From the NCBI GenBank assembly GCA_011525365.1, contig WTGQ01000002.1, forward strand, positions 2,524,773 to 2,588,772: a DNA stretch of 64,000 nucleotides. The letters are read 5' to 3'. The notes beneath the pieces were generated by a model. That model did no database searches. It saw nothing but the letters and a program-made list of their open reading frames with translations, and had not been told where the DNA came from. The position numbers and the translations under genes were made by a program. Every line of letters starts with the position of its first letter. Positions within the stretch are counted from its first letter, which is position 1. Shown here piece after piece: positions 6,230 to 44,049 of the stretch. Origin of the DNA: Acidobacteriota bacterium. GTDB taxonomy: Bacteria > Acidobacteriota > Thermoanaerobaculia > Multivoradales > Multivoraceae.

Positions 6230-6357
6230 GTAGCTGACAGGGAGCGCTGGGGGCTCCGGTCAGATTCCCGTCAGGGAAAGGTCAGGCCACCGGCCCTGCC
6301 CCCGCGGCGAGAATCAGGAATCCGGGTCAAACCCCGGCTGTTTCCATTCGTAGATAT

Positions 6358-7886: not shown

Positions 7887-9500
7887 ATGTCGACCAAAGC
7901 GACAACCCGCCGAGCCGGCGGAGCGATCCTCGGGGCCGGCCTCGCGCTGACGCTTGCGTGCGGCGGTGAGCAGGTCGAGCCCCTCACCACGACCGTCAAC
8001 ACGGAGCTCGGCGCGGTCGAAGGCCAGGCGCTCGAGTCCGGAGTCTTCAAGTTCGCCGGTATCCCGTTCGCGGCGCCGCCGGTTGGCGACCTCCGCTGGC
8101 AGGCGCCCCAGCCGGCTGCCGCCTGGGAGGGCAGCCGCGACGCCACGCGGTTTTCCGGTAGCTGCTGGCAGCCACTCTCCCCACCCGGTTCCTTCTACGA
8201 CACCGGCGAGATCGAGCGCAGCGAGGACTGTCTCTACCTGAACGTCTGGACCGGCGCCGAACACGCCGAAGCAGCTCTTCCGGTCATGGTGTGGATCCAC
8301 GGAGGCGGCCTCCAGACCGGCTCTGGCAGCACTCTGCTGTACGACGGGGAGAGTCTGGCCGAGCGCGGCGTCGTGCTGGTGACGATCAACTACAGGCTCG
8401 GACCGATGGGCTTCCTGGCTCACGCGGAACTCTCGGCCGAAACCGAGTCGGGAGCGTCGGGGAACTACGGCATCCTGGATCAGGTCGCCGCGCTCCAGTG
8501 GGTCCAGGCGAACATCACCGCCTTTGGCGGAGACCCGGGCCGGGTCACGATCTTCGGCGAGTCGGCCGGTTCGTGGAGCGTCAACTACCTGACCGCGACG
8601 CCGCTCGCCGCGGGGCTGTTCCACCGCGCGATCGGGCACAGCGGCGGCATCTTCTGGCCCATGCCGCAGCTTGGAGACGCGGAGTCCGAAGGTGCGCGCG
8701 TCGCGGAGCGCCTCGGCGCCGGCGACCTCGCGGCCATGCGCGCCGCCACCGCCGAGGAGGTCTACGAAGCGGCCGGTGCGTCCGAAGCGCTTGTCTTCGT
8801 CGGCCTCAGCGACGGCCACGTGTTCCCGCGCGACATCCACGATCTGTTCGCCACCGGCGAGCAGAACGACGTCGACACGATCGTCGGCTTCAACAGCGAC
8901 GAGGGGACCGCCCTGTTCGCCGGTCCCGCCGGAACCACCGTCGCCGACTACCGGCAGTTGCTCGCGGACACCTATGGCGAGCACGCCGACGCGATGTTCG
9001 CCGTCTACCCCGCCGAGACCGACGAACAGGCACGGATCGCCGCCTACGAGAACACGGCCGACCAGTTCTTCGCCTGGCAGATGCGGACCTGGGCCAGGCT
9101 GCAGAACCGCACCGGACAACGACCCGTTCGAATGTACTTCTTCTCCCGGGTACCACCATGGGACGAGGCGGACACCTACGGTTCGTACCACGCGGCGGAG
9201 ATCGCCTACGCCTTCGACAACCTCCACCTCAGCGGCGAGTTGAGGGACGACATCGGCCCCTTCAACCACGCCTGGGACGAGACCGACCGGGCGCTCGCGG
9301 ACACGATGGCGAGCTACTGGGTGAACTTCGCGGCCACCGGCGACCCCAACGGCGACGGCCTGCCCGACTGGCCCGTCTACGATCCGGATGCCGACGGCGT
9401 CCTCGAACTGGGCGACAAGATCGGCGTCATCCAGGGCCTGCTCAAGGATCGGCTGGACGCCTTCGACGCCTACTACGAGGACCTGCGCGGGAACGGGTAG
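7887..9500 (+). CDS. carboxylesterase type B family lipoprotein (para-nitrobenzyl esterase-like)
   Basis: Lipobox LTLACGG. Type-B esterase motifs EDCLYLNVW, the nucleophile elbow GESAGSWSV and VMVWIHGGG. GGAGGAG Shine-Dalgarno sequence. Confidence 0.9.
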   Translation: MSTKATTRRAGGAILGAGLALTLACGGEQVEPLTTTVNTELGAVEGQALESGVFKFAGIPFAAPPVGDLRWQAPQPAAAWEGSRDATRFSGSCWQPLSPPGSFYDTGEIERSEDCLYLNVWTGAEHAEAALPVMVWIHGGGLQTGSGSTLLYDGESLAERGVVLVTINYRLGPMGFLAHAELSAETESGASGNYGILDQVAALQWVQANITAFGGDPGRVTIFGESAGSWSVNYLTATPLAAGLFHRAIGHSGGIFWPMPQLGDAESEGARVAERLGAGDLAAMRAATAEEVYEAAGASEALVFVGLSDGHVFPRDIHDLFATGEQNDVDTIVGFNSDEGTALFAGPAGTTVADYRQLLADTYGEHADAMFAVYPAETDEQARIAAYENTADQFFAWQMRTWARLQNRTGQRPVRMYFFSRVPPWDEADTYGSYHAAEIAYAFDNLHLSGELRDDIGPFNHAWDETDRALADTMASYWVNFAATGDPNGDGLPDWPVYDPDADGVLELGDKIGVIQGLLKDRLDAFDAYYEDLRGNG

Positions 9501-10721: not shown

Positions 10722-12110
10722 ATGCGGTCACCTGACACCGTTCCGGCAACGTCGCCGCGGCCGAGGCAGATCCTGGCGGCGGCAGCGATCGGTATCACGG
10801 CGGCCCTGCTGGTTCTGCGCTGGACGGCGCCGGACAACACGACCGCCCCTTCCGGCAGCGCATCCCGCGGCGTCCCGGCTCCCCTGCCAGCCCGCCCGGA
10901 GCCCGAGCCGCCGCCGCCCCTGCCTCGCGAACTCAGCGATGCTCTCGACCTGATGGCTCAGGGAAGACTCCGTGAAGCGCAGCGCCTGATGCTCAGCTTC
11001 GACGCCAGTCCTGCCGCCCTGGAACTGCTGCCCGACCATCGGGAGACCATGAACGCAATGCTGGAGCGCCTCGGGAAAGAGCCGGTCCTGCTGGCTGCCC
11101 TGGAGTTCGAGGGCGGCTTCGAGGATGCCGACCTCGACCGGCTTCGCCGAGCGCTTGGCTCACTGTCGCGCGAGCGGATGATCGCCCTCCGGCGTGACCC
11201 GCAGGCATCGCGCCACGTCGACGACGCGCGACGGCTGACCTCGGAGGTCGACGCGATCGAGGGACTGCTGGGCAGCGACCGGCTGGCGGCGCTCCGGCTG
11301 GCCCAGGACTTCGCGCGGCGACACCCGCGATTCGCGGCCGGCCTCGCCTTCGAGGATCGCGCCGCCGAGGCGATCGAGGAAACGGCCGGGCGGTTGATGG
11401 CGGCGAACCGCCTGGAAGAGGCCCGAACGCTGCTGCTCGAACTCAGATCGCTTCGCGGCGACTCGGCCGAGGAGGCCACGTCCGTCGATGCCAGGCTGGC
11501 TTCCATCGACTCGGTGTTCCAGCGACGGAGCGACCTGGACGCCGCGATCCGTGAGATCGAGATGCTGGGTCGGAAACGACCACACGAGGCGCTGGAGGTT
11601 CTCGCCGCCATGGGGCGGACACCCGAGAACGGTCGTCGTCTGGCCCAGGTGGAGTCCACTCTCAGGTTCCTGCTGGACGATCTCGACCAGGGAAGCCCCG
11701 CCGTCGAGATACTGGCCGCGAACGGTTCGAGCCTGGACCAGATCGAGTACGACCGCCGCGAGGATCTGGTGCTGCTGGTTCGCGCCCGGGACGACTACGA
11801 GGTGGTTTCGGTGCGTTTCTTCTGGCGTTGGTTCGACCGCGAAGGGGAAGGCGATGTCGTCGAGGCGATACTCAGGCCGGTCGACCCTGAGCCGGCGCCC
11901 GCCGCGGACGCCGCAGGCGACGCCAGAACCACCGAGATCGCCTTCAAGGCGACGGTTACACAGCCCGAACACGGGGGCCGGAGCATTCAGTTCTGGGCCG
12001 AGGCGACCGACCGTGGCGGCCGCGTCGCGAGAAGCGACGACCCGCCGAGACAACTCACTCCTGCGCGGCGCGGGTTCCTGCAGCGGCTCGGCCTTCGCCG
12101 CCGCCAGTGA
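10722..12110 (+). CDS. hypothetical protein with an N-terminal membrane anchor
   Basis: Transmembrane helix ILAAAAIGITAALLVL, a Pro-rich linker, then a helical Ala/Leu/Arg-rich body. I prefer it over the antisense ORF 11160..12146 because of consistent GC3 bias and the signal-anchor. Confidence 0.45.
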   Translation: MRSPDTVPATSPRPRQILAAAAIGITAALLVLRWTAPDNTTAPSGSASRGVPAPLPARPEPEPPPPLPRELSDALDLMAQGRLREAQRLMLSFDASPAALELLPDHRETMNAMLERLGKEPVLLAALEFEGGFEDADLDRLRRALGSLSRERMIALRRDPQASRHVDDARRLTSEVDAIEGLLGSDRLAALRLAQDFARRHPRFAAGLAFEDRAAEAIEETAGRLMAANRLEEARTLLLELRSLRGDSAEEATSVDARLASIDSVFQRRSDLDAAIREIEMLGRKRPHEALEVLAAMGRTPENGRRLAQVESTLRFLLDDLDQGSPAVEILAANGSSLDQIEYDRREDLVLLVRARDDYEVVSVRFFWRWFDREGEGDVVEAILRPVDPEPAPAADAAGDARTTEIAFKATVTQPEHGGRSIQFWAEATDRGGRVARSDDPPRQLTPARRGFLQRLGLRRRQ

Positions 12111-12169: not shown

Positions 12170-13435
12170 ATGATGACCGCCGTGGCGAACGGTACCAGCG
12201 CCCCGAACAACGCCGGTGAAACACCTGCAGAGCCGGCGATACCCCAGCACCACGTCGAGACGACCGACCGGGACTTCCGCAGCCTCGGGCTGAATCCGGA
12301 GATCCTGGAGGTCCTGGCCGAAATCGGCTTCGAGCATCCGACGCCCATCCAGGCCGACGTGATCCCCGACGCGATCGCCGGCAGGGACCTGATCGGCCTG
12401 GCCGAAACCGGCTCCGGCAAGACAGCCGCCTTCGTCCTGCCGATCGTCCAGCGGCTCGGCCGGGGCAAGGGCGTGCGCGCGCTCGTCGTCTGCCCCACGC
12501 GCGAGATCGCCCTGCAGACCAAGGCCTTCCTCGACGTCTTTCGCAAGAGCCGGTTGCGAATCACCTCGGCCTGCCTGATCGGAGGCGTGAAGATCGGACC
12601 CCAGTTCGACCAGTTGCGCCGGGATCCCGACGTTTTGGTGGCAACGCCCGGGCGACTCCTGGACCACACCGAACGCGGCACGGTGAGCCTTCGCAACGTC
12701 GAGGAGCTCGTGCTGGACGAAGCAGACCACATGCTCGACCTCGGCTTCATGCCCCAGGTGCAGCGGATCGTGACCCAGGTGCCCAGCCGGCGGCACACGA
12801 TGCTGTTCTCGGCCACCATGCCGCCCCCGATCGAACGCCTGGCCCAGCGCTACATGGACGATCCCCTCCGGATCGACCTGGCGCCCCGCGGCGCCGCTTC
12901 CGGAATCGAACACCGCCTCTACCTGGTCGACGAGAAGGACAAGAAGAGCTGCGCCCTGGCGCTGCTCGACTCGGTCCCCGGATCGACCCTCGTCTTCACC
13001 AAGCGCCGGTCCGACGCCGAGTGGCTGTGCCGGGTGCTGGAGCGGGGACGGCACAGCGTCGCGCGCATCCACTCGGACCGCTCGCAGAAGCACCGGGTCG
13101 ACGCCCTCGAGAGTTTCCGCGCTGGTCATCATCGCATCCTGGTGGCAACGAACATCGCGGCCCGCGGCATCGACGTCCAGGGCATCGAGCACATCCTGAA
13201 CTACGACCTTCCCGATACCGCCGAGGACTACATCCACCGCGCCGGCCGCACCGCACGCGGCGCCGCCGAAGGGGTCGTGTCGTCGATCGGTACCTGGCTC
13301 GACAAGCCGATCGTCCGCCAGATAGAGCTGGCGCTCGGTCACCCGCTGCCTCGCCGGGAAGTCGAGGGAGTGTCCCCTTACCGTGAAATGCGGTCGCTCA
13401 ACGAGCGCCGCCGGCGCTCTCCGCTGCGCCGCTGA
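12170..13435 (+). CDS. DEAD-box ATP-dependent RNA helicase (RhlE/DeaD-like)
   Basis: Q-motif PTPIQ, motif I AETGSGKT, motif II DEAD, motif III SAT, motif VI HRAGRTAR. Arg-rich C-terminal tail. Confidence 0.9.
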   Translation: MMTAVANGTSAPNNAGETPAEPAIPQHHVETTDRDFRSLGLNPEILEVLAEIGFEHPTPIQADVIPDAIAGRDLIGLAETGSGKTAAFVLPIVQRLGRGKGVRALVVCPTREIALQTKAFLDVFRKSRLRITSACLIGGVKIGPQFDQLRRDPDVLVATPGRLLDHTERGTVSLRNVEELVLDEADHMLDLGFMPQVQRIVTQVPSRRHTMLFSATMPPPIERLAQRYMDDPLRIDLAPRGAASGIEHRLYLVDEKDKKSCALALLDSVPGSTLVFTKRRSDAEWLCRVLERGRHSVARIHSDRSQKHRVDALESFRAGHHRILVATNIAARGIDVQGIEHILNYDLPDTAEDYIHRAGRTARGAAEGVVSSIGTWLDKPIVRQIELALGHPLPRREVEGVSPYREMRSLNERRRRSPLRR

Positions 13436-18991: not shown

Positions 18992-21229
18992 CTACTCCAG
19001 GTGCCAGCCGTGGCTGCCCTGGAGCAGCGCCCGCTGGGAGTCGAACGGCTCGCTGCCGGCCCCCGGCTCGACTCGCGTGTAGCTGCCGTCCGGCTCCAGA
19101 CGCCGGCAGTTCGCCGTGTCGACCAGGTGCGGCGCCAGGATGTCCCGGAGCGCCGCCTGCCGCAGGTCCGGATCCAGGATCGGACACAGCAGTTCGACCC
19201 GGCCGTTCAGGTTGCGAGGCATCAGGTCGGCGCTGCCGGTGAACAGCTCCTCGTCGCCGCCGTTCCGGAAGTAGTACAGCCGCGAGTGCTCGAGGAACCG
19301 GCCGACGATCGAGGTCACCGAGATGTTCTCGGACAGACCAGGCACGCCCGGACGCAGACAGCAGATCCCACGCACCTGCAGCAGCACGTCGACGCCGGCC
19401 TGGGAGGCGCGGTACAGCGCGTCGATGCACTCGCGGTCGACCAGCGAGTTCATCTTGAAGATCAGGCGTCCGTCACCGCGCAGCCGGTGGCCCTCGATCT
19501 CCCGGTCGATTCGCCGGACGAGTTCACGGCGCATCTGGTGCGGCGCGACCAGGAGGCGACTGTAGCGCTCCTCACGGGCGTATCCGGTGATCGCGTTGAA
19601 CAGTTTGGCCACGTCCGAAGTGATCTCGGCGTCATCCGTCAGCAGTCCGATGTCCGTATAGATGCGGGCGGTCACCGGGTTGTAGTTGCCGGTCGCGAGG
19701 TGCGCGTAGGAGTGCAGCTTGCCCGCCTCCCGACGCACCACGAGGCACATCTTGGCGTGGGTCTTGAGCCCCATCACGCCGTACACGACATGAACGCCGG
19801 CGGCTTCCAGCGCCCGCGCCCAGCCGATGTTGTACTCCTCGTCGAAGCGCGCCTTCAACTCGACCAGGACCGAGACCTGTTTGCCCTTCTCCCGCGCCTC
19901 CATCAGGGCCTCGACGACGGGTGAGTTCGCTCCAACACGGTAGAGGGTCTGCTTGATCGCGATCACGTCCGGATCGGCCGCCGCCTCCTGCAGCAGCCGA
20001 ACGACCGGGGAGAAGCTGTCGTACGGGTGATAGAGGAGGTGATCGCGCCGCCGGATCGCCTCGAAGAGGGACTCGTCGCTCCTGAGCGCGGCATGGCGCA
20101 CGGGGCGGATGGTGCTGTCACGGAGTTCGGGCAGATCGAGGAACGCGATCTCGCTCAGGTCGGCCAGGCCGAGCGGCGACGGCAACGTGTCCACCTGGAA
20201 TCGTGCCAAACCCATGTTCCGCTCCAGAATCGCCCGGATGCGCTTCGGCATGTCCTCGCGTACCTCCAGGCGCACGACGGAGCCGAAGTGCCTCTGCCCG
20301 ACGACCTCGACGATCGCCGTCAGCAGATCGCCCGCCTCGTCCTCCTCCACCTCCAGGTCGGCGTCCCGCGTGACCCGGAAAGGGTAGGCGGCCGCGACCT
20401 CGAAGCCAGGGAACAGCAGGTCGAGATTGGCCGCGATCAGCTCCTCGATCCACACGAACCTGCCCCGCCCCGACTCCAGGCCCAGCTCGTCGCGGCTGCT
20501 GCCTGGCGCCCGCACCAGACGCGGCAGTACCTGCGGCACCTTGACGCGGGCGAAGCGCTCACCGTGACTGCCGTCGTCGATGACCACCGCCAGATTCAGG
20601 CTCAGGTTCGAGACGTGAGGAAACGGATGGCTCGGGTCGAATGCCAGCGGCGTCAAAACGGGGAAGATGTCGCGCTTGAAGTACGACCGCAGCTTGCGCT
20701 TCTTCTTGTCCGAAAGGGAGTCGTACGAGACGATCTTGATCCCCGCTTCGTTCAGTTTGGGCAGCAGGTCGTCATGCCAGCAGCCGTAGACCAGCCGGCG
20801 TTCGCGCTCGAGATGGGAGCGGATGCCGGCCAACTGCTCGGACGGCGTCATTCCGTCCGGCGGCGCTTCCAGCGCGCCGCGTTCGAGTTGCCGCACCAGA
20901 CCCGCGACGCGAACCATGAAGAACTCGTCCAGGTTGCTGCCGTAGATCGAGAGGAACTTGACCCGCTCGAGCAGCGGATGCCGGGAATCGCGAGCCTCTT
21001 CGAGCACCCGGCTGTTGAAGCGCAGCCAACTCAGCTCCCGGTTGATGTAGTGCTCGGCGAGACCCGGCACGATGGCCGGCGTCCGCCGTTTCGCGGGCGG
21101 ATCCGCTTCTGCATCCAATGGTTCGGCCACCTCCAATGGTTCGGCCGGCACCGTCGCCGTCGACGGCTCGATCAGGTCTTCAGCGGACGCAGCCTCTGGA
21201 TTCATCGAAGTAACAGCCGGGGTCGCCAC
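18992..21229 (-). CDS. ppk: polyphosphate kinase 1
   Basis: PPK1 N-domain ELSWLRFNSRVLEEA...LSIYGSNLDEFFMVRV. PLD-like HKD-type C-domains. About 700 aa. The true start may be an internal Met. Confidence 0.9.
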   Translation of the reverse strand: MATPAVTSMNPEAASAEDLIEPSTATVPAEPLEVAEPLDAEADPPAKRRTPAIVPGLAEHYINRELSWLRFNSRVLEEARDSRHPLLERVKFLSIYGSNLDEFFMVRVAGLVRQLERGALEAPPDGMTPSEQLAGIRSHLERERRLVYGCWHDDLLPKLNEAGIKIVSYDSLSDKKKRKLRSYFKRDIFPVLTPLAFDPSHPFPHVSNLSLNLAVVIDDGSHGERFARVKVPQVLPRLVRAPGSSRDELGLESGRGRFVWIEELIAANLDLLFPGFEVAAAYPFRVTRDADLEVEEDEAGDLLTAIVEVVGQRHFGSVVRLEVREDMPKRIRAILERNMGLARFQVDTLPSPLGLADLSEIAFLDLPELRDSTIRPVRHAALRSDESLFEAIRRRDHLLYHPYDSFSPVVRLLQEAAADPDVIAIKQTLYRVGANSPVVEALMEAREKGKQVSVLVELKARFDEEYNIGWARALEAAGVHVVYGVMGLKTHAKMCLVVRREAGKLHSYAHLATGNYNPVTARIYTDIGLLTDDAEITSDVAKLFNAITGYAREERYSRLLVAPHQMRRELVRRIDREIEGHRLRGDGRLIFKMNSLVDRECIDALYRASQAGVDVLLQVRGICCLRPGVPGLSENISVTSIVGRFLEHSRLYYFRNGGDEELFTGSADLMPRNLNGRVELLCPILDPDLRQAALRDILAPHLVDTANCRRLEPDGSYTRVEPGAGSEPFDSQRALLQGSHGWHLE

Positions 21230-27921: not shown

Positions 27922-28647
27922 ATGGCCTTCAAGCTCGAGCGACGCGAGACCACCCGGTCGAAGTTCGCACCCGGTTCCCTCCATCTCGGTGGATCGCCAT
28001 ACGAGTTGGAGCCCGAGAACCGGACCCCACTGCGAATCGCGGTCATCGCGACGATCGCCTTCCACGCGCTGCTGTTCGTCATCAGCTTCCCCAGCATGAG
28101 GCCGCGGGCACTCCAGGCCGCACAGTCACCGAAGGCGTTCGTCGTCCAGGCCGTGCGCTTCAAGCCGCCGCCACCCGCCAAGGCGGAGCCCATTCCCCAG
28201 CGAAAGACGAAGAAGATCCCGATTCCCGACCCGACCCCCGACGAGCCCGAGCCGCTGATCCGGGAAGAGCTCCTCGAAGCGCCGCAACTGGAGATCGATG
28301 GCATCGCCGACGTCCTGTTCGACCTTCCAGAAGCCCCCTCCCCCGCCGGACCGCCCGGCACCATGTGGGTCGAAGGCGATGTCCTGCCCCCCAAGAAGAC
28401 CTACGCTCCGCTGCCCAACTACACCGAGGAGGCGCGTCAGGCGCGCATCCAGGGCGTCGTCATCCTGCAGGCCGTCGTCGATACCCTGGGCCAGGTCGGC
28501 TACGTCAAGGTGCTCAAGGGCCTGCCGGAGGGTCTCACCGAGTCCGCCGTCCAGGTCGTTCAGGAGTGGCGCTACGAACCCGCCACCCTGAACGGCGAAC
28601 CGGTCCCGGTCTACATCAACCTGACCGTCAACTTCTCGCTGCAGTAG
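27922..28647 (+). CDS. TonB family protein (C-terminal TonB domain)
   Basis: Pro-rich spacer KPPPPAKAEP followed by the TonB C-domain NYTEEARQARIQGVVILQAVVDTLGQVGYVKVLKG...ESAVQVVQEWRYEPA. Confidence 0.7.
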   Translation: MAFKLERRETTRSKFAPGSLHLGGSPYELEPENRTPLRIAVIATIAFHALLFVISFPSMRPRALQAAQSPKAFVVQAVRFKPPPPAKAEPIPQRKTKKIPIPDPTPDEPEPLIREELLEAPQLEIDGIADVLFDLPEAPSPAGPPGTMWVEGDVLPPKKTYAPLPNYTEEARQARIQGVVILQAVVDTLGQVGYVKVLKGLPEGLTESAVQVVQEWRYEPATLNGEPVPVYINLTVNFSLQ

Positions 28648-28667
28648 GCGACCCGGCGGATAGCCAC

Positions 28668-28846
28668 GCCTGCGCCGAGGCCGGGAGGGAGGGTCCCAGC
28701 GGACGCTCGCGCCCTCTTGGTGGATGAGGAGACCTGGCGCTCGCTTCGGTCGGCTGCGCTCCGCTACGTGGTTGGTTGATGGACGGACATGGGCAGTCGC
28801 TGGCCTCTAGCCCGCTGGGACCCTCCCTCCCGGCCTCGGCGCAGGC
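28668..28846. repeat. 35-bp perfect inverted repeat pair flanking a 109-bp spacer (MITE-like or large hairpin)
   Basis: 28668-28702 GCCTGCGCCGAGGCCGGGAGGGAGGGTCCCAGCGG is the exact reverse complement of 28812-28846. The repeat itself is certain. Its nature is not. Confidence 0.7.
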
Positions 28847-28860
28847 TGGACGATGTCGGC

Positions 28861-28945
28861 GTTGTGTCACACCTATGCACCTCAACACGGTTTGTGTAAC
28901 ACTTCGAGGCCACAAGTGCGACACAAGCCTGTTTGTCGTACACAG
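28861..28945 (+). promoter_or_regulatory. array of four GTGTnACAC-type near-palindromic motifs upstream of the fic gene (operator-like)
   Basis: GTGTCACAC at 28864, GTGTAACAC at 28894, GTGCGACAC at about 28915 and GTCGTACAC at about 28934. Spacings are 30, 21 and 19 bp. The array ends about 40 bp before the fic ATG. Confidence 0.4.
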
Positions 28946-28986
28946 ACGTTCCACAAAGAGCGCGACGCCAGGAGTCAAGAAGCACG

Positions 28987-30102
28987 ATGTCTCCCGTCCA
29001 CTACCAACCCGGCAGCTTCCCGCCAGACGAGCGCCTCGACTGGGCCGAACTCGTACCGCTGATTGGCCCCACCACGGCTGCAATCGCCCGCTACGACGGC
29101 TTACTCGAAGCCGTGCCCAACCCCGATGTCCTGCTTGCGCCGCTCGGAACCCAGGAAGCCGTGCTCTCGTCCCGGATCGAGGGCACTCAGGCTACCGCCC
29201 GCGAGGTCCTAGAGTACGAGGCTGGACAGGAAGCGCCCTCTTCGGAGCGGAGGAACGACTTCGTCGAGGTCCTGAACTACCGACTCGCGATGCGCGAAGC
29301 AGAGCAGTTGCTGAGGAAGCTACCAATCTGCCTCAAAGTCGTTCGGCAAACGCATCGGGTTCTCCTTCGTGGAGCACGCGGCAAAGGGCGCGACCCAGGC
29401 GAGTTCCGCCGGTTACCGAACTGGATCGGCCCCCCCGACTGCACAGTCGAAGAGGCGCGCTTCGTGCCGATCGAGGCCGACAAGCTCATGGCCGGCCTCG
29501 ATCGATGGGAGAAGTACCTCCACGAGGAGACTCGGGACCAGTTAGTTCAGCTCGCTGTCATACACGCCGAGTTCGAGGCTCTGCACCCGTTCCTCGACGG
29601 TAACGGCCGTCTGGGTCGCATGCTCGTGCCTCTCTACCTCGCCGAGAAGAGCCTGATTCGGCGGCCGATGTTCTACATCAGTGCCTTCCTTGAAGCGAAT
29701 CGCGACGCCTACTACGAAGGACTCCTCGCAGTCTCCCGCGATGACGACTGGACAGGCTGGTGCCGCTTCTTCCTAGAGGCCCTGCGCACGCAAGCGGAGG
29801 ACAACATCGCCAAGGCGAGAAGAATCCTGAGTCTGTACGACCGGATGAAGCACCATGTAACCGACCTCACTCACTCCCAGTACGCCATCAGTTCGCTGGA
29901 CTTCATCTTTGAGTCTCCGGCGTTCAGCAGCACACGTTTCATCGCACACGAGAAGGTGCCCGCTCCCGCCGCTCGCCGCATCCTGAACGCACTCCGCGAT
30001 GACGGCGTGTTGAGAACGGTGCTCCCAGCCAGCGGCCGCCGGCCCGCGATCTTCGTCTTCGACGAACTCCTCGAAGTCGCCGAGGGTCGCGCGACCGAGT
30101 AA
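28987..30102 (+). CDS. Fic family protein (class II Fic with an N-terminal inhibitory helix)
   Basis: Fic motif HPFLDGNGRLGRM. Upstream (S/T)xxxE(G/N) inhibitory motif SSRIEG. ATG at 28987. Confidence 0.85.
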   Translation: MSPVHYQPGSFPPDERLDWAELVPLIGPTTAAIARYDGLLEAVPNPDVLLAPLGTQEAVLSSRIEGTQATAREVLEYEAGQEAPSSERRNDFVEVLNYRLAMREAEQLLRKLPICLKVVRQTHRVLLRGARGKGRDPGEFRRLPNWIGPPDCTVEEARFVPIEADKLMAGLDRWEKYLHEETRDQLVQLAVIHAEFEALHPFLDGNGRLGRMLVPLYLAEKSLIRRPMFYISAFLEANRDAYYEGLLAVSRDDDWTGWCRFFLEALRTQAEDNIAKARRILSLYDRMKHHVTDLTHSQYAISSLDFIFESPAFSSTRFIAHEKVPAPAARRILNALRDDGVLRTVLPASGRRPAIFVFDELLEVAEGRATE

Positions 30103-30125
30103 CCTCGCCGACTCAACAAACGCTG

Positions 30126-32985
30126 ATGAGACTAGCTTGGCAGGAGATCCGCCCACGCGCCGCCGCGTTCGCCCGCGACTGGGCCGACGCCGGCTACGAG
30201 AAGGGCGAGACGCAGAGCTTCTACAACGCCTTCTTCCGCATCTTTGGCGTCGAGCGGCGCAGCGTCGCCCGCTACGAGGAGCAGGTCAAGCGGCTGGACG
30301 ACTCGCAGGGGTTCATCGACTTGTTCTGGCCGGGCGTGCTGCTGGTCGAGCAGAAGAGCGCCGGCCGCGATCTCGTGGCGGCGCGCCGTCAGGCGCTGTC
30401 TTACTTCGACGCCCTCCCGGAGCGCGAGCGGCCTCGCTATCTGCTGTTGTGCGACTTCCAGAACTTCGAACTGCTCGACCTGGACGAAGGCGAGGAAGCG
30501 CGGTTCACGCTGGCCGAGTTGCCCTCCAACGTGGAGAAGTTCGGCTTCATCCTCGGGGTCCAGAAGCGGACCTTCCGCGACGAGGACCCGGTCAACGCGG
30601 AGGCCGCGAAGCTGATGGCGGATCTCCACGACCGGCTGCTCGAGGTCGGCTACGGCGGTCGGGAGCTGGAGTTGTTCCTTGTCCGGATCGTGTTCTGCCT
30701 GTTCGCCGACGACACGGGCATCTTCGAGCGGCGCGACATCCTGCTCGAGCTGCTGGAGCAGCGAACCTCACCGGACGGCAGCGACTTGGGCGGCAGGTTG
30801 GCGCATCTCTTCCAGGTCCTGAACACGCCCGAAGCCAGCCGTCAGGCGACCCTGGACGAGGACCTGGCCCGCTTCCCGTACATCAACGGCGACCTGTTCG
30901 CGGAGACCCTGCCGATCGCCGACTTCGACTCCGCGATGCGCAGAGCGCTGCTCGATGCTTGCCGCTTCGACTGGACCGAGATCTCGCCGGCGATCTTCGG
31001 GACGCTGTTTCAGTCGGTCATGGAACCGGAGGAGCAGCGGATCAAGGGCAGCCACTACACGTCGGAGGCGAACGTCCTGAAGGTCATCGAGCCGCTGTTC
31101 CTGGACGACCTGCGGGCCGAGTTCTTGAGGCTCCGGCGGAGCCGAGGCACGCGGCGCAACGCCGAACTCCATGCCTTCCGGCAGCGACTCGGCCGGATGC
31201 GTTTCCTCGATCCGGCCTGCGGTTGCGGCAACTTCCTGGTCATCGCCTACCGGGAACTGCGCCAGCTCGAGATCGAGGTGCTCCGGGAACTCTTCCCGTC
31301 GCGCCAGCTCGGCCTCCTTGCTGACGCTCTGTCCCTCGTGAACGTGGATCAGTTCCACGGCATCGACCTCGACGAGTTCCCGAAACGGATCACGGAGATC
31401 GCGCTCTGGATGATGGACCACATCATGAACAACAGGCTCAGCCTGGAGTTCGGGGAGGCCTACGCGCGGATCCCGCTGGAGAGCTCACCGCAGATCCCTG
31501 CGCGGTGACGCTCTGGAGGTCGACTGGGACGACGTCCTTCCGCCGGAAGAGTGCTCCTTCGTGCTCGGCAATCCGCCCTTCGGCGGTGCCAAGCACCAGA
31601 CCGAGGAACAGCGGGCGCAGGTGCATCGCATCGCGGATCTCGGCAAGAGCGGCGGCACCTTGGACTACGTCACGGCCTGGTTCCTGAAGGCCGGCGAGTA
31701 CCTGCACCAAGGAATCGAGACCCAGCGCCGGTCCAGGGATCCAGCTGCAGCCGCCAATACGGTCCGGCCGCTCCGGATCGGTTTCGTCGCCACGAACTCG
31801 ATCACTCAGGGCGAGCAGGTCGGCCAATTGTGGCCGTTGATCTTCGACCGTCTGGGACTCGAGATCGCTTTCGGCCACCGGACGTTCGCCTGGAAGTCGG
31901 ACATCAAGAAGAAGGCGAACGTCCATGTCGTGATCGTCGGCCTCACGCTAGCGACCGACACCCCCAAGGATCGTCGGTTGTTCTCTTATCCCGACGTCAA
32001 GGGGAGTGCCGAGGAGAGCCGCCACGCTGCGATCTCGCCGTATCTCGTTGACGCCGGCGGACTCGCCGACCCGCATCTCGTCGTGCGGGAGACGGCAGAG
32101 CCGCTCAACGGCTGGCCGCGTCTCGCTAGCGGCAGCCAGCCCATCGACGACAGGAACTACATCTTCACCGACGACCAGCGGGCTACGTTCCTGGAACAAG
32201 AACCCGGGGCCGCGAAGCACTTGCGCCCCTACGTTGGCGGCGGTGACTACATACAGCGCCACTCCCGTTGGATCCTCGCCCTTCAGGACGCCGAGCCAGA
32301 GGAACTAGCAGCCTTGCCCTTCGTGGTGCAGCGGATCAAGGCTGTCAGGGAGTTCAGGTCAAGGAGCAAGAGGAAGGGCACGCTCGCGATCGCCAACTCT
32401 CCCCGAAGCTACAACGTCGAAGTCCTGCCCACGTCGCCCTTCCTCATCGTCCCCGAGGTCAGCTCCGAGCGCCGCGACTACGTGCCGATCGGCTGGCTTG
32501 AACCCCCGACCATCCCGAGCAACACAGCCCGCATCATCGAGAATGCGACCAAGCCGCTCTTCGCCCTGCTGACCTCCGCCATGCACATGGCCTGGCTGCG
32601 CGTGATCGGCGGCCGCCTGGAGAGCAGGTACCGATACTCGATCGGCTTGGTCTACAACCCCTTCCCGGCGCCGGCGGCGGACGCGGAAGTGCTCAACGAG
32701 AAGCTCGCGCCCTTGGCCAACGCCGTACTCGCAGCCCGCGCAGCGCACCCCGGCGCAACGCTGGCCGAACTCTACGACCCGGACCTCATGCCCGACGACC
32801 TCCGCCGCGCCCACCAGGCCATCGACCGTGCCGTCGACCGCCTCTACCGCCCGCGCCGCTTCTTATCGGAGAACGAGCGGCTGGAGCACCTGCTCTCCCT
32901 CTACGAGAAAACGATCGCCCCCATCTCCGCCGCGGCCCAGCCCAAGCGAAAGCGACGCCGCCGGAGGACGGTCGCGCGCAGATAG
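30126..32985 (+). pseudogene. MmeI-family type IIL restriction-modification enzyme (endonuclease-methyltransferase-TRD fusion), disrupted by a frameshift near 31495-31510
   Basis: N-terminal PD-ExK FIDLFWPGVLLVEQKS. Methyltransferase motif I LDPACGCGNFLV. Motif IV GNPPFGG, with the preceding RGDALEVDWDDVL in the +1 frame. The first frame stops at 31506-31508, and the second frame is open upstream through the junction. Confidence 0.65.
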
Positions 32986-33052
32986 CCGGGGTTGGCGTCC
33001 TGGAGCAGTCGCGTTCAGTCGCCGACGGGAGGCTAGAGCTAGAGTCCGGTTC

Positions 33053-34492
33053 ATGTCCCAGCGGCCCCCTGGCACCGAGCCGATTCTCCTCGAGAATGCA
33101 GTGCGGTTGCGCCCGGCCACGGCGGTCGACAGTGGCACCTGCGAACGTGACGTCATCGCGCGGGCGGAGATTCGGCTCCTGCCGAAGCCGGGCCTCGCAC
33201 TCATCGCGGACGACACTCCTTTCCGCCTCGATTCGGCCAAGGAGCCCTGGACCCTGGTTCAACCCAAGACCTCTGGAGAGCTGTTCGACGTCACGCCGCA
33301 ACCATCTCCTTCATCGCCGCCGGAGGACAAACTCAGGCAGTTCTTTGAGATCTTCGAAGCCACCGGCCACGAAACCGTAAGTCGTCAATCGACAGCCGAC
33401 GCAAGGGAACCGACACGGTGGAACCTAGTGTTTCTACCCCGACGTGCGCCCATCGTCGTTGAAAGGCGTCGAGAAGCTGCCAAGCGACTTGAACTCGAGA
33501 TTCTCAACTTCCCCGTCTTCGGGGGTGACGCGACGAAGGCGGTGCAACTCCCTGGCGGAATCTACCGGATCGGCCATCTGGCGGTCGAAGCGGCACCCTG
33601 GAAGATCGAGTTCACCGAGAGGCCCGGGCTAGGCAGCGTCAGGGCGGAGTTGAATGCAAGCCGCGGGTTCGCAACGACCCACGAGGCAAGAATCGACAGA
33701 GCGGACGGCGGTCCAATCGAGAAAGAGGAAGCTCAGCGTCTCTTGGAAGCGCTCGACCGGTTTCTCTCCTTCACGCGAGGAGTCGGATGCGCCACCGCGG
33801 TTGTAAGGGCGTTCTCGGGTGACGACGCCGTCGTCTGGGAACAGTGGGGCTGTCGGCAGGTGGCGCCTTGGCGCCCTGAACCAGACTCCTGGTTCGACTT
33901 GGAGCATGGGCGAGTCCTTGCCGAGGCCTTCTCCGCCTTCCTTCGTACTTGGGAAACGTGCCACGAGAAGCGGGCCGCCCTTCGCGAGGCGATCTACTGG
34001 TACCTCACAGGACACTGGGAGAACAGTCGAGTGGACGGCGGCCTCATCCTGCTACAGGCGGCGATGGAGCGCCTTGCACATACCTTCTACCGCCCGAAGC
34101 GCTGGAAGGGAAAGGAGAGGGAGACAAGCGGGCAGTGGCTTCGGATGGCCCTTGAGCGAGCTGGAATCCCGGTGGAAGCGCCAGCCAGCTTCAAAGCCCT
34201 CGGCACGTTCGCCGACGGCTTGAGCTGCCCGAAGGGAGAGAAAAGAGACGCCGTGTTTGCGATGACGCAGGCGCGAAACAACGCCGTTCACCCAAGGAAG
34301 GAAACGGAAGTCGCGGGCAGCCTCTACTTCCAAGCCTGGACCCTGGCTCGTTCCTTCGTGGAGCTCATGGTACTAAGTGCCATCGGCTACCAAGGCCCCT
34401 TCGCCAATCGCCTGCGGGAGGGAAGGGTGGAACTCGTGCCCTGGGCGCAGACCAAGAAGCTCCAGTCGGCAATCACACACGGCGCCGAGTAG
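33053..34492 (+). CDS. hypothetical protein, 479 aa, with a C-terminal helical domain carrying a HEPN-like RNxxxH motif
   Basis: ATG at 33053. Lies 67 nt after the MmeI-like gene. The motif is AMTQARNNAVHPRKE inside a predicted all-helical C-terminal 180 aa or so. I recognise no family. Local GC (about 59%) is lower than the flanks. Confidence 0.45.
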   Translation: MSQRPPGTEPILLENAVRLRPATAVDSGTCERDVIARAEIRLLPKPGLALIADDTPFRLDSAKEPWTLVQPKTSGELFDVTPQPSPSSPPEDKLRQFFEIFEATGHETVSRQSTADAREPTRWNLVFLPRRAPIVVERRREAAKRLELEILNFPVFGGDATKAVQLPGGIYRIGHLAVEAAPWKIEFTERPGLGSVRAELNASRGFATTHEARIDRADGGPIEKEEAQRLLEALDRFLSFTRGVGCATAVVRAFSGDDAVVWEQWGCRQVAPWRPEPDSWFDLEHGRVLAEAFSAFLRTWETCHEKRAALREAIYWYLTGHWENSRVDGGLILLQAAMERLAHTFYRPKRWKGKERETSGQWLRMALERAGIPVEAPASFKALGTFADGLSCPKGEKRDAVFAMTQARNNAVHPRKETEVAGSLYFQAWTLARSFVELMVLSAIGYQGPFANRLREGRVELVPWAQTKKLQSAITHGAE

Positions 34493-34518
34493 TGGGTCGG
34501 CGATCCCGAGCAGCGGAG

Positions 34519-35421
34519 ATGGCTCTGTGTGCGGAAGACGCGTTGCTCGCCGCCATCGAGATCTACAACAAGCCTCGAGTCGCCTACCGCGAGCAGACGC
34601 TGGCGCTCCTCCTGGTGAATGCCTGGGAGATCCTCCTGAAGGCGCGTGTCGTTCAGATGCACGGCAACAATCTGGCGGCGATCTACAGGCGGGAGCGAGG
34701 GTCCAAGCGATTCAGAAGAGCCAGATCGGGGAGAATCCTCACGGTCAGCCTTAGAGAGGCCGCCGAGAAGGCTCAGGTGGCCGATCAGGTGCGAAGCAAC
34801 CTGGAGGGACTCTGCGAGATCAGGGACGAGGCGGCGCATCTGGGCAACCTAGGGTCCGAGTTCAGGGAACAGACGCTGAAGCTTGGTTCAGCGGCGGTTC
34901 GGAACTTCGTTGTAGCTGTTGGCCGATGGTTTGGCCGGCAGGTTGAGGCACCTCACTTCCTGCCGCTTGGCTTCCTCAATCAAGCGGATCTGGTAAGGCC
35001 GGCCAACGTGCGGCAGAGAGAACTCCTGGACTATCTGAGGAAGCTGACTTCGGACCAGACACCATCGGACTCCGGGTTCACCGTGAGCTTGCGTGTCGAC
35101 GTTCTGCTGAACCCGGAGTTCTCCGGCGGTGGCACGATCGGTGTCACGAACAACCCAGCCGCGCCGAAGGTGCACCTGACGGACACGCAAGCTCTCGAGC
35201 GGTATCCGCTGACGTACGAGGATCTCGTAGAGGAGTGCCGCGCCCTGATTCCGAACCTCAAGCAGAACCAGTCGTTTCACGAGGCGATGAAGACAGTGAA
35301 GAGTGACGCTAACCAAGCGCTCGAGAGGCGGCTGAATCCGCAGAAGCCCGGAGGTACGAGGAAGTTCTTCTACGCCAGGACGGCGCCGGGCCGTCTCCGG
35401 CACCTCCTGCGAGGTGACTGA
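34519..35421 (+). CDS. hypothetical protein, about 300 aa, with an N-terminal four-helix HEPN-like domain (Rx4H: EIRDEAAHLGN)
   Basis: The ORF 34492..35421 overlaps the stop of the upstream gene. The probable start is the ATG at 34519. It has a conserved-looking helix AIEIYNKP...LALLLVNAWEILLKA and an Rx4H motif. I can place it in no named family. Confidence 0.45.
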   Translation: MALCAEDALLAAIEIYNKPRVAYREQTLALLLVNAWEILLKARVVQMHGNNLAAIYRRERGSKRFRRARSGRILTVSLREAAEKAQVADQVRSNLEGLCEIRDEAAHLGNLGSEFREQTLKLGSAAVRNFVVAVGRWFGRQVEAPHFLPLGFLNQADLVRPANVRQRELLDYLRKLTSDQTPSDSGFTVSLRVDVLLNPEFSGGGTIGVTNNPAAPKVHLTDTQALERYPLTYEDLVEECRALIPNLKQNQSFHEAMKTVKSDANQALERRLNPQKPGGTRKFFYARTAPGRLRHLLRGD

Positions 35422-35494
35422 AGTGGCTGGCGCAGCGTTCGGCGTGGTCCGTTGGTCCGCGTAGGGGAGCCAGCCGACGCCGATGCCCGCCGGC

Positions 35495-36577
35495 CTAATC
35501 TCCGCCCGAACCCGTGCTCGCGCCCTGCCCCTTCTTCTCGTAGTACTCCTTCTCCAGCAGCCGGGCGCCGCGGAGGATGTTGCCCATCGCGTAGTTGCCT
35601 TCGTGGCAGGCGTACTCGTAGAGAAGGCCGTCGGTTCCCGGCCAGATGAGTTCGCCGCTATAGGGGGCAGCGTAGTCCGTGTCATGGACGGTGAACCCGT
35701 AGAGCAGGTCCCTCTCGCCGTGGCGGCTGAAGCGCTCGATGACCTTCAGGCCGTCGCGCGGGTCGCTCTGGCTGTCGAGGAAGTTGGTCGTCTCCACGAC
35801 CAGCGTGTCGCCTTCCCACCAGCCGATCGAGTCGCCGCCCATCGAACGGTACTCGGCTGGCGCGTGCTCGGCGTTCAGGCGGACCACCTTCGCCCAATGC
35901 ATCCACTCGACCAGGATCACGACGTGGTCCTCGGTCTGCGTGATCGTCTTCAGGTTGTTGTAGGGCAGTGAACGGACCGGCGTCGTGGCGACGCCGGTGT
36001 AGATGCAGCGGTCTCCGGGAGTCAACGTCTCGGGGCCATCGTAGGGATCGTCCCCGGCCTCGATCCACCAGGCGTCCCCGGTGTTCTTGTAGAGGTACGG
36101 GTTCACCCTGGCCCGCCGCGCCTTGCCGGCCTCGGTCAGTTCCGGCATACGGCCGTTCGGCGGGTCGATGAGGACCGATGTACGGTACTGGCCATCGATC
36201 GGATACGCCTGGTTGCCAAAGTCCAGCCAGAAGAAGTTGTAGCCGCCGACCGCGCCGGACGCGCCCGCGGAACCGTCGCCGCCAGCCGGGGGCGCCTCAC
36301 GGTCCGGGTCGCTGACCGCGTCCGCGCCCGCGCTGGCCGCCGCCATCCCGGCAGCGATCCGCTCCGCTTCCTCCGCGGTCATGAACTGTTTGTCGCCGAA
36401 GCGGGGATCCCGTTCGAACGGTGTCAGGTTGGCGACGTCGTAGTTGCCGGACAGGTCCGGCCGGCCGCTCGCCGTGCGCCGGATGTCGTCATCGCTGGCC
36501 GCCACGGCGGGCGTGGCGAGAAGCGACAGAAAGACGAGAACAACGAACAGGGTGGAGACGTTGCGACGAATCGGCAT
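35495..36577 (-). CDS. secreted hypothetical protein
   Basis: Signal peptide MPIRRNVSTLFVVLVFLSLLATPAVAAS. About 335-aa mature region with no recognisable family. Confidence 0.5.
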   Translation of the reverse strand: MPIRRNVSTLFVVLVFLSLLATPAVAASDDDIRRTASGRPDLSGNYDVANLTPFERDPRFGDKQFMTAEEAERIAAGMAAASAGADAVSDPDREAPPAGGDGSAGASGAVGGYNFFWLDFGNQAYPIDGQYRTSVLIDPPNGRMPELTEAGKARRARVNPYLYKNTGDAWWIEAGDDPYDGPETLTPGDRCIYTGVATTPVRSLPYNNLKTITQTEDHVVILVEWMHWAKVVRLNAEHAPAEYRSMGGDSIGWWEGDTLVVETTNFLDSQSDPRDGLKVIERFSRHGERDLLYGFTVHDTDYAAPYSGELIWPGTDGLLYEYACHEGNYAMGNILRGARLLEKEYYEKKGQGASTGSGGD

Positions 36578-42042: not shown

Positions 42043-44049
42043 TCAGGGGGAGCCGGTAGCCGCTGCGCCGGATGCCGCCGTCAGCGGGAACTCCTCCACG
42101 CCGTACTCGGCCAGGATCGAGGCCGCCAGATCGGTAATGGCGGGGGCCGGCCTGGCAAGGGGCCGGCTGGTGAACAGCACCCCCGGCACGACCCGGTGAT
42201 CCATCATGTGATCGCCGCTCCAGGCGCCGTCGTTGTCCGAGAACACCTCGCCGACGACCTTCCCCGTCGCTGATTCGGTCGATCCCCGGTAGCCTTTGGC
42301 ATAGCCGATGATCAGGTCGGGGCCGACGGCCGCCGGCTCCTGGAAGGCATAGTCGGCGCGACGCTTGACCTCCGTGATCGCGCGTTCGCCCGTCGCGGGA
42401 TCGACCACGGCCAGCAGTTCCGTTCTCAGTTCCTCGATCAGCTCGAGCCTCTCCGCCGCGGTCACGACGCCCTCCCGCTCGCGGCCGCGCAGATTGACAT
42501 AAAGACCCGTGAAGCCGATGCCGTAGGCCCGGGTTCCCTCCCAGTCGACGTTGAGCAGGAAGTCCGGGTCGTTGTAGGCATCCGGGTCCTTCGCCCGCAG
42601 GTAGCCCTTCTCGAGCAGCCAGGCGTTCAGGTGGAAGGTACGCCGCCAGGAGGCGAAGCCATGGTCCGACATGGCGACGACAAGCGGCTCGTCCTCACCA
42701 CCGTCGCCCAGTCCCGCCGCCGCTTCGAGACGGTCGAGCGTCTGCCCGACGATCGCGTCGAGGCCTTCGTAAAGGGTCGGGATCAGGTCGGCATGGGCCG
42801 CGTCGGTTTCGGGATCGTAGGCCGGATGCTCCGGATCGCGCGAGCGCCAGCGCACATGGCCGATCAGGTCCACGTTGCCGAAGTAGTAGAAGAGGAAACC
42901 GCCGGGCTCCTCCAGGAATCGATCCAGCACGTAGCCGTACTGCTCCACCACTTCGTCGCCGGCGATCTTCGCCTGGGCCAGGAACTCCTCCGGAGTGAAC
43001 ACGCCTTCGGTCAGGGTCTTCGTGTCCTCGGGCATCCCTTCGGTGTAGAACCGGTCCACCTCCTGGGCGAGTTCGGCCGCGAAGTCGGGCGGCGTCGAGA
43101 TCGGGGCCGATGGGGCCATCGGATCGTGGTCGATGGGGCTCACGTAGAGCTCGAACTCCGGCTCCAGCGCCCGTAGGTACATACGGCAGATTCCCCGCAG
43201 GTGCTGGGTCGGCATCATCTCGAAGTCGACCTCGAGCCAGTCGCTCCACTCCCCGACCTGGAGCACGATCTGCTGATCGCCGAGTTCGATCTTGGCGCTC
43301 GCGGCCTCCGGATCGATGTAGACGGTGAAGGGCGCGGTCAACTGCTCCGGTTCCTGCAGCAGCGGATTCTCGGGGCCGAGCAGCTCCGCCTCGACGACGT
43401 TGTCGTAGATGTCCAGCTCGACGATGTCGCCGCCGCTGACCTCGCGGTCGGCGAAGAGTTCCGAGGTGTAGAACGAGAACGTGCCGTCCGTGCCGAGGAT
43501 GTCGCTCGTCCCCATCCCCGAAAGCTCGCGACTGGCCGTGCCCGAAACCGGGAAGTTCGCCGGCATGCGGATCACCTGCGTCCGCACACCGTGCTCCTCC
43601 AGCACCTCCCAGAACGGCGTGCCGTGCCGAAAGTGCGTGTACTCGCCGCTGGTGAGCGGGAACTGCCAGCGTCCCACCTTCAGGAACCGGCCTCCCGCGG
43701 ACGAACCGGCGGTAGAGGAGTACGGAATCAGCGTCTCCGGATCGGAGTGGAGGAAGTCGAAGATGCCGTGGCCGCCCGGGTCCATTCCGGTGATGAAGCT
43801 CGACCAGGCGACCGGGCTCTGCGGCGGGACCGTCGTCCGGAGTTGGGCGAAGGTGCCCATCGCCTCCAGCCGGGCGAAGTTCGGCAACCGACCCTCGTCG
43901 ATCAACTGGCGCGTCAGCGCGTGGTCCAGGCCGTCGAAGCCGAGAACGACGACCTTCGGCCCCCTGGAAGGGCCGACGCCTCCACCGCCGCAAGCGAGGA
44001 GCAGGGCGGCCGAGAGAACCGCCGCCGTCGCCAGACGTGAACGCTTCAC
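42043..44049 (-). CDS. type I phosphodiesterase / nucleotide pyrophosphatase family lipoprotein (alkaline-phosphatase superfamily)
   Basis: Lipobox LLLACGGG. AlkP-core motifs VVLGFDGLD, SPVAWSSFITG and AMSDHGF. Confidence 0.8.
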   Translation of the reverse strand: MKRSRLATAAVLSAALLLACGGGGVGPSRGPKVVVLGFDGLDHALTRQLIDEGRLPNFARLEAMGTFAQLRTTVPPQSPVAWSSFITGMDPGGHGIFDFLHSDPETLIPYSSTAGSSAGGRFLKVGRWQFPLTSGEYTHFRHGTPFWEVLEEHGVRTQVIRMPANFPVSGTASRELSGMGTSDILGTDGTFSFYTSELFADREVSGGDIVELDIYDNVVEAELLGPENPLLQEPEQLTAPFTVYIDPEAASAKIELGDQQIVLQVGEWSDWLEVDFEMMPTQHLRGICRMYLRALEPEFELYVSPIDHDPMAPSAPISTPPDFAAELAQEVDRFYTEGMPEDTKTLTEGVFTPEEFLAQAKIAGDEVVEQYGYVLDRFLEEPGGFLFYYFGNVDLIGHVRWRSRDPEHPAYDPETDAAHADLIPTLYEGLDAIVGQTLDRLEAAAGLGDGGEDEPLVVAMSDHGFASWRRTFHLNAWLLEKGYLRAKDPDAYNDPDFLLNVDWEGTRAYGIGFTGLYVNLRGREREGVVTAAERLELIEELRTELLAVVDPATGERAITEVKRRADYAFQEPAAVGPDLIIGYAKGYRGSTESATGKVVGEVFSDNDGAWSGDHMMDHRVVPGVLFTSRPLARPAPAITDLAASILAEYGVEEFPLTAASGAAATGSP

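Follow-up and report, generated by a model that had tools for sequence, protein, structure and literature searches.

The window, by which we mean the whole 64,000-nucleotide stretch of DNA analysed, comes from an uncultured acidobacterium and carries a chromosomal restriction-modification (RM) gene of the MmeI family (type IIL/IIG) that was very probably inactivated in the recent past by a genuine 1-nt insertion, CC having become CCC at positions 31496–31498. The 460-aa open reading frame (ORF) in frame 0 (30126–31508, + strand) and the frame +1 reading that continues to position 32985 together make up one 952-aa type IIL enzyme. The locus is a pseudogene of an MmeI-family member rather than a working member.

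The 5′ part of the gene (30126–31508, + strand) begins with an ATG in frame 0 and, as delimited by the ORF list and by Pfam and PADLOC matches, encodes a PD-ExK nuclease domain, a helical spacer and the start of a gamma-class m6A methyltransferase domain (motifs X and I) before truncation at 460 aa. The nuclease motif IDLFWPGVLLVEQKS (30315–30359, + strand; aa 64–78, D65...E75-Q-K77) aligns with VDLFWPGILLIEMKS of MmeI such that the catalytic residues D70, E80 and K82 of that enzyme (PMC2731913 and PMC4833311) are all matched (D70...E80-M-K82). Methyltransferase motif I, the AdoMet-binding segment, reads LDPACGCGNFLV and lies at 31206–31241 (+ strand, aa 361–372), also in frame 0. From 31499 to 32985 (+ strand) only frame +1 is readable, giving RGDALEVDWDDVLPPEECSFVLGNPPFGG from 31501. 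The same three sources place in this 3′ part the rest of the methyltransferase domain (the GDAL segment and motif IV), the target recognition domain (TRD) and the C-terminal helical domain. Motif IV, NPPF, is encoded at 31570–31581 (+ strand) in frame +1, and the two methyltransferase motifs of a single gene therefore sit in different reading frames. The earliest possible start codon in frame +1 is the GTG at 31561, which opens a 474-aa ORF (31561–32985). Frame 0 ends at a premature TGA (31506–31508, + strand), three codons past the frameshift, and its product has the C-terminus ...PLESSPQIPAR (ARIPLESSPQIPAR). A scan of 28600–35700 for promoters and terminators found nothing above shuffled expectation.

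Much of this layout had been proposed in a first-pass annotation of the same DNA, which described an MmeI-family type IIL RM gene with a single-base frameshift, the PD-ExK motif and motif I in frame 0, the motif IV continuation in frame +1 and a frame-0 TGA at 31506–31508. We recovered every one of these features. That annotation also put the junction beside a CCC run at about 31497–31499; the C run is indeed the junction, although it occupies 31496–31498. Its estimate of roughly 935 aa for the intact enzyme fell short, since the repaired product has 952 aa.

Membership in the MmeI family was defined by Morgan et al. (2009) as similarity to MmeI along the whole length of the protein, beyond the methyltransferase domain alone. 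The repaired protein shows such similarity, its residues 1–937 aligning end to end with residues 1–910 of MmeI (PDB 5HR4) at E=2e-263. All five MmeI domains of Pfam were found far above their gathering scores, with E-values of 1e-24 to 1e-60. The 5′ part contains MmeI_N (aa 11–173), MmeI_hel (aa 180–258) and MmeI_Mtase (aa 344–457, profile positions 7–112), and the 3′ part contains profile positions 115–258 of MmeI_Mtase followed by MmeI_TRD and MmeI_C. The MmeI_Mtase domain is cut between the two ORFs, between profile positions 112 and 115, and the PADLOC model REase_MTase_IIG (PDLC03598, 912 positions) is split into 2–462 and 465–909. Domain matches of this quality across both pieces are far beyond chance, and together with the PADLOC model and the 5HR4 alignment they bear out the family assignment.

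MmeI of Methylophilus methylotrophus (PDB 5HR4) is the prototype of the type IIL single-polypeptide RM enzymes. Its domain limits are residues 1–155 for the nuclease, 156–300 for the spacer, 301–620 for the methyltransferase, 621–825 for the TRD and 826–919 for the C-terminal bundle (PMC4833311). The window gene encodes the same five domains in the same order (nuclease, helical spacer, gamma-class m6A methyltransferase, TRD, C-terminal bundle). Identical to MmeI are the PD-ExK residues, motif I (LDPACGCGNFL, where the family consensus is FDPACGCGxFL; PMC4833311), and motif IV NPPF; the equivalents of H314 and W570 are conserved, and motifs I and IV mark the methyltransferase as a gamma-class N6-adenine enzyme. 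Enzymes of the MmeI family come without a companion methyltransferase gene, and gene calls over the neighbourhood 20126–42985 of the window contained no second methyltransferase gene. Unlike MmeI, the window gene does not encode a single continuous polypeptide, the frame being broken by the 1-nt insertion at about MmeI residue 457, with the stop codon following at 31506–31508. This position lies within the methyltransferase fold, between motif I (aa 360–370) and NPPF (aa 481–484).

The lesion was located by comparison with intact relatives, which read GATCCT where the window has GATCCCT, a CCC run with one extra C (31496–31498, + strand). The blastn alignment to the closest intact locus (L002) contained exactly one 1-nt gap, GATCCCT against GAT-CCT, and this lone gap at the C run upheld the frameshift first proposed. 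The alignment to a second relative (L003, encoding P0122; partial but in frame) likewise had a single 1-nt gap within a couple of bases of the C run. Upon deletion of one C the junction reads PQILRGDALEVDW, which matches PRILRGDALEVDW of P0001 (ILRGDAL, ILRGDALEVDW), the protein of the closest relative, and PHILNANALQIDW of MmeI (PHILNANAL). If the frame were restored by leaving out a base of the stop codon, the junction would read PQIPARDAL, in which the conserved IL and G are lost. As the C-deleted repair matches the relatives and the stop-codon skip does not, we take the event to be a +1 insertion in a CC run. After the one-base repair there are no further stops or shifts in the gene.

The lesion alters a short homopolymer by one base, which is also the commonest type of consensus error, and the rest of the gene is undamaged and evolves under purifying selection, as would be expected if the true genome had CC and encoded a functional 952-aa type IIL enzyme. 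We consider such a sequencing or assembly artefact very unlikely. The exact 460-aa and 474-aa products occur on 17–18 contigs in the NCBI, JGI/IMG, ENA and Logan records, and a 61-nt string spanning the junction was found without change in L001, L004, L085 and four Logan contigs (SRR10694902/04/05/07). L004, a JGI contig of 3,875,896 bp, matches the window with 100% identity across 21.4 kb. L001, a 2.24-Mb scaffold from a metagenome-assembled genome (MAG) in ENA, is set apart from the window by 2 SNPs in the same 21.4 kb, at 20820 and 37814. C-tract length was the same in all seven loci checked, which represent five or more distinct assemblies. Because three assembly pipelines (JGI, ENA MAG and Logan) and at least four SRA runs agree, a one-off consensus error is very unlikely. 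A run of 3 nt is moreover not error-prone on short-read platforms, and no near-identical intact allele is on record, the closest intact protein among about 15 billion proteins being 94% identical. Genuine single-lesion disruptions are documented both in the MmeI family and in 5 of the 80 best relatives of the gene.

The reality of the lesion rests on this agreement between assemblies. The frameshifted assemblies appear to belong to one near-clonal population (0–2 SNPs per 21 kb), and they are independent measurements but not independent lineages; they therefore show that the lesion is reproducible, not that it is old. An intact minority allele in the population, or a systematic error common to all the data sets, would be improbable. 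Scans of metagenome contigs with a CC-or-CCC junction pattern and with an intact-allele string matched neither allele; the collection evidently lacks the organism, and the scans were uninformative. The first-pass annotation had left the choice between a decaying gene and a sequencing indel. Given that the same junction recurs in independent assemblies and that a sister species carries a different lesion in the same gene (see below), the pseudogene reading is favoured and a one-off assembly error disfavoured, the exact junction being present in the JGI contig, the ENA MAG and the four Logan contigs. The word decaying overstates the case, however, as there is exactly one lesion and no sign yet of relaxed selection.

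The mmeI-like gene lies within a small chromosomal defence islet that has housekeeping genes on its flanks. Upstream is an intact gene for a 371-aa SoFic-like Fic/DOC protein (28987–30102, + strand; Pfam Fic_N and Fic) that ends 23 nt before the mmeI start and is syntenic in L002, L003, L005 and L006. The protein matches the PADLOC SoFic model with E=1e-107 over profile positions 8–358 of 361, and scores 163 bits with the NCBIfam SoFic equivalog, the cut-off of which is 550. The Fic motif expected of SoFic, HxFx(D/E)GNGRxxR, is present as HPFLDGNGRLGR. Downstream are two intact genes. The first (33053–34492, + strand; called also in L001 and L004) encodes a 479-aa protein with Pfam domains YopA_M and YopA_C. 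It belongs to a variable cassette, is 91% identical in L006 and had no PADLOC or NCBIfam match. The second (34519–35421, + strand; Pfam DUF3644) encodes a 300-aa protein, the PADLOC candidate defence protein PDC-S19 (E=3e-70), which is 97% identical in L006.

The closest intact relative of the mmeI-like gene is that of L002 (P0001), which encodes 951 aa with 94% identity and comes from the Logan assembly of DRR530893. The nearest named genomes seen in a scan of genome contigs were MAGs of Candidatus Multivorans (Acidobacteriota, Thermoanaerobaculia), which share 88–89% nucleotide identity and synteny with the window, and it is on this that its placement at genus level rests. An association with sponges is suggested only by the names of the MAGs that carry homologues. 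The L005 and L006 loci are syntenic with the window, with TonB-like and SoFic genes on the left side and a conserved 360-aa gene on the right. The Candidatus Multivorans orthologues of L005, L006 and L002 occupy this same chromosomal position, between the TonB-like/SoFic genes and the 360-aa gene, with 80–94% amino acid identity, but differ in their state. Those of L005 (955 aa) and L002 are intact, whereas that of L006 (Candidatus Multivorans thiocomprendens) is broken by another lesion, a frameshifting deletion of 56 nt directly after the EQKS catalytic motif. At the site of the window junction the L006 gene reads in frame. Independent knock-outs of this gene are thus carried by two sister lineages whose neighbouring genes are intact. 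Disruption was found in 5 of the 80 best relatives from species-representative genomes. One is L006 with its deletion, another is L076 with a frameshift, and the other three (L042, L060 and L075) have nonsense codons.

Loss by a single lesion is already established in the MmeI family, and the window case is an ordinary one. The NmeAIII, DraRI and ApyPI genes are natively disrupted by single lesions that were confirmed by resequencing, and their repair restored activity (Morgan et al. 2009, PMC2731913). Like the window gene, each has one lesion, a nonsense codon or a short-repeat frameshift, in an otherwise conserved gene, and in ApyPI, as in the window, it is the length of a short simple repeat that has changed. 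They differ in position, lying at aa 32, 841 and 886 where the window lesion is in the middle of the methyltransferase, and in how they were established, by resequencing and gene repair there and by agreement between assemblies here.

For NmeAIII, DraRI and ApyPI an on/off polymorphism was proposed by Morgan et al. (PMC2731913), and the window allele could by the same logic be an 'off' form that coexists with, or readily reverts to, an intact allele in the population. The lesion is the only one in the gene, there is no further decay and loss of one C would reverse it. Strain heterogeneity could moreover explain why the Logan contigs end within the 5′ part of the gene and at the right-hand border of the islet. 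Against this, all recorded copies from the window lineage are frameshifted, no intact allele was found and a C run of 3 nt is far below the tract lengths that support high-frequency slipped-strand switching. A coexisting or reverting allele seems to us highly improbable, and phase variation by slipped-strand switching was rejected as a candidate, the tract being only CCC and invariant in length across assemblies. A wider reading supposes that in a host-associated acidobacterial population the type IIL enzyme has a standing polymorphism between on and off states, and that the knock-outs in sister species, which leave SoFic and PDC-S19 intact, reveal recurrent selection against single-strand-modifying RM enzymes and not neutral decay; we regard it as a speculation with little chance of being right.

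The reading that we prefer, a genuine and recent inactivation, is consistent with the pattern of substitutions. The Nei-Gojobori dN/dS of the window gene and L002 is 0.18, other pairs give 0.18–0.20 and the pair of intact genes, L002 and L005, also gives 0.18. When L005 and L006 serve as outgroups, the window lineage accounts for about 30 nonsynonymous and 49 synonymous changes, and the lineage of the intact L002 for 24 and 45. Relaxation is thus not detectable: purifying selection acted on the gene during almost its entire history, and the break is recent. The mmeI-like gene is repairable by one base. Fixation of the dead allele may reflect selection, relaxed or negative, on an enzyme that is costly and self-targeting.

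The insertion shifts the frame inside the methyltransferase Rossmann fold, with translation ending three codons on. What remains in the 460-aa product is the nuclease and the spacer together with half of the methyltransferase, in which the H314 equivalent lies; NPPF and the W570 equivalent are missing, as is the TRD in its entirety. A product re-initiated at the GTG at 31561 would start at VLGNPPF. The 20 conserved residues RGDALEVDWDDVLPPEECSF would then be absent from both products.

The two pieces could still make a functional enzyme through programmed +1 ribosomal frameshifting or as two subunits (460 aa and 474 aa), an explanation that we find scarcely credible. The frame-0 stop, a UGA with C as the next base, stands in a weak context for termination, and split methyltransferases are known in other families. 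However, the shift has no counterpart in the closest relatives or in the best 120 homologues, all of which are single in-frame polypeptides. The sequence AUC-CCU-GCG-CGG-UGA offers no +1-slippery codon pairing, and the downstream 101 nt of RNA fold no better than shuffled sequences (z = -1.27). With homologues in frame, no slippery site and unremarkable downstream structure, a programmed ribosomal frameshift was rejected. A functional split enzyme was rejected on account of the methyltransferase core, as the 20 residues that would be missing from both products include the GDAL segment as well as the greater part of the strand that runs into NPPF. In MmeI the catalytic pocket is built of residues from both sides of the break position (PMC4833311). 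Because these core residues are in neither product and the pocket spans the break, we infer that the enzyme is almost certainly dead, with methylation and targeted cleavage both lost.

The intact ancestor was one polypeptide of 952 aa. Judged from its homology to MmeI, it would have bound an asymmetric site of 6–7 bp through its TRD and methylated one adenine on one strand for self-protection, and its N-terminal PD-ExK domain would have cut about 20/18 nt away. Some features of the site can be suggested from the residues that set the specificity of MmeI (PMC2731914 and PMC4833311). The equivalents of E751 and N773 (base 3), R810 (base 4) and E806 and R808 (base 6) are identical in the window gene, the last three residues lying in the TRD segment GGRLESRYRYS (32608–32640, + strand; alignment to 5HR4). 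Unlike in MmeI, the equivalents of A723, F737 and Y738 (base 1) are R, N and V, and those of Y642 and K645 (base 2) are S and Q. As the base-1 and base-2 residues differ yet those of bases 3, 4 and 6 are kept, the ancestral target was probably not the TCCRAC of MmeI but probably shared its ..CRAC part. The relatives L002, P0001 and P0003 have K-S-D at the position-6 specificity residues where the window gene has E-S-R.

The 460-aa and 474-aa ORFs, which public records call separately, are better annotated as one frameshifted mmeI-like pseudogene, and methylome predictions for the organism should expect no motif from this locus. Beyond correct annotation the importance of the case is small. For the question of how RM genes turn over in defence islets, the paired independent losses in sister species add a single observation. 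As with NmeAIII, DraRI and ApyPI, repair, here by deletion of one C, would probably restore activity; the enzyme would have a new ..CRAC-related specificity, which is of modest practical interest to enzyme hunters.

Divergence between the frameshifted mmeI gene of the window (30126-32985, plus strand) and the intact gene of L002 (1465-4320), the Logan-assembly locus that encodes its closest intact relative, was unevenly distributed along the gene: dS rose from 0.076 in the N-terminal half to 0.336 in the C-terminal (TRD) half. Directly upstream of mmeI, the SoFic genes of this pair of loci shared only 78% nucleotide identity. A mosaic was also seen in L006, a syntenic Ca. Multivorans thiocomprendens locus with a deletion in mmeI. 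There (L006 6001-6243), the 69 nt ahead of the deletion matched window 30300-30368 exactly and the first 81 codons gave 96% protein identity, whereas the remainder of the gene had about 88% nucleotide identity to that of the window. These patterns of identity and dS suggest that segments of mmeI have been exchanged between Ca. Multivorans lineages by recombination or gene conversion.

The TRD residues equivalent to the MmeI E806/R808 pair also differed among close relatives. Alignment of the repaired window protein with its homologues gave E-S-R in the window (32608-32640) and in the homologue P0002, versus K-S-D at the same positions in P0003 and in P0001, the 951-residue L002 protein, which is 94% identical to that of the window. 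As this swap at the E806/R808 positions turns base 6 of the site from C to G (Morgan and Luyten, PMC2731914), even very close mmeI relatives probably have different recognition sites.

The L006 lesion (6236-6250 of the locus; JAPVWO010000265.1) is an independent 56-nt frameshifting deletion directly 3' of the PD-ExK EQKS motif, and the sole mmeI product recorded in NCBI for this locus is the 835-residue downstream ORF (P0132). Single lesions were found in four other relatives, these being in-frame stops at residues 892 (L042), 5 (L060) and 553 (L075) and a frameshift near residues 20-25 (L076). About 6% of the 80 best mmeI relatives were disrupted.

On the 5' side, a SoFic-like gene (window 28987-30102) adjoins mmeI in every Ca. 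Multivorans locus, and genes of about 60% identity lie upstream of mmeI in two Latescibacterota genomes (L015 4666-5766 and L007 4510-5610). One gammaproteobacterial genome (L069) has a SoFic-like gene near mmeI on the opposite strand. The pair was present in only 5 of 80 loci; the two genes may sometimes travel together.

The segment 3' of mmeI is a variable cassette (window 33053-35600; L002 4377-6211; L005, a syntenic Ca. Multivorans locus with intact mmeI, 8868-9420; and L006). It encodes YopA_M/C and DUF3644 (PDC-S19) in the window and L006, DUF2513 plus two small ORFs in L002, and next to nothing in L005. The right boundary, at about 35500-35600 in the window, is conserved (97.8% to L002). 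All four Logan contigs terminate at window 35592-35594, and these shared ends hint that the boundary is either a place where strains differ or a hotspot of recombination.

Elsewhere in the window, ARAGORN called an 87-nt tRNA-Trp (43919-44005, minus strand, anticodon at position 39). It lies within the 5' end of a 668-residue phosphodiesterase-family ORF (42043-44049, minus strand), and a scan of the whole window against Rfam families, including tRNA, gave no match at gathering score. The call is probably a false positive.

Full-length homologues of 62-68% identity were found in MAGs from many phyla (genome_contigs loci L007-L084), several of them with names that point to sponges: Poribacteria, Latescibacterota, Binatia, Ca. 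Synechococcus spongiarum, Ca. Poriferihabitaceae and Ca. Palauibacter. This distribution suggests that one MmeI subfamily is horizontally widespread inside one habitat, the habitat being read from the MAG names alone. Within four of these loci, short MmeI-like remnants lie a few kb from intact full-length genes. Those of L013 (4233-4436), L033 (10298-10504) and L040 (two, at 11045-11248 and 12612-12797) match C-terminal residues ~870-940, and that of L064 (12362-12457) matches N-terminal residues 1-32. Such remnants may be leftovers from earlier gene replacements.
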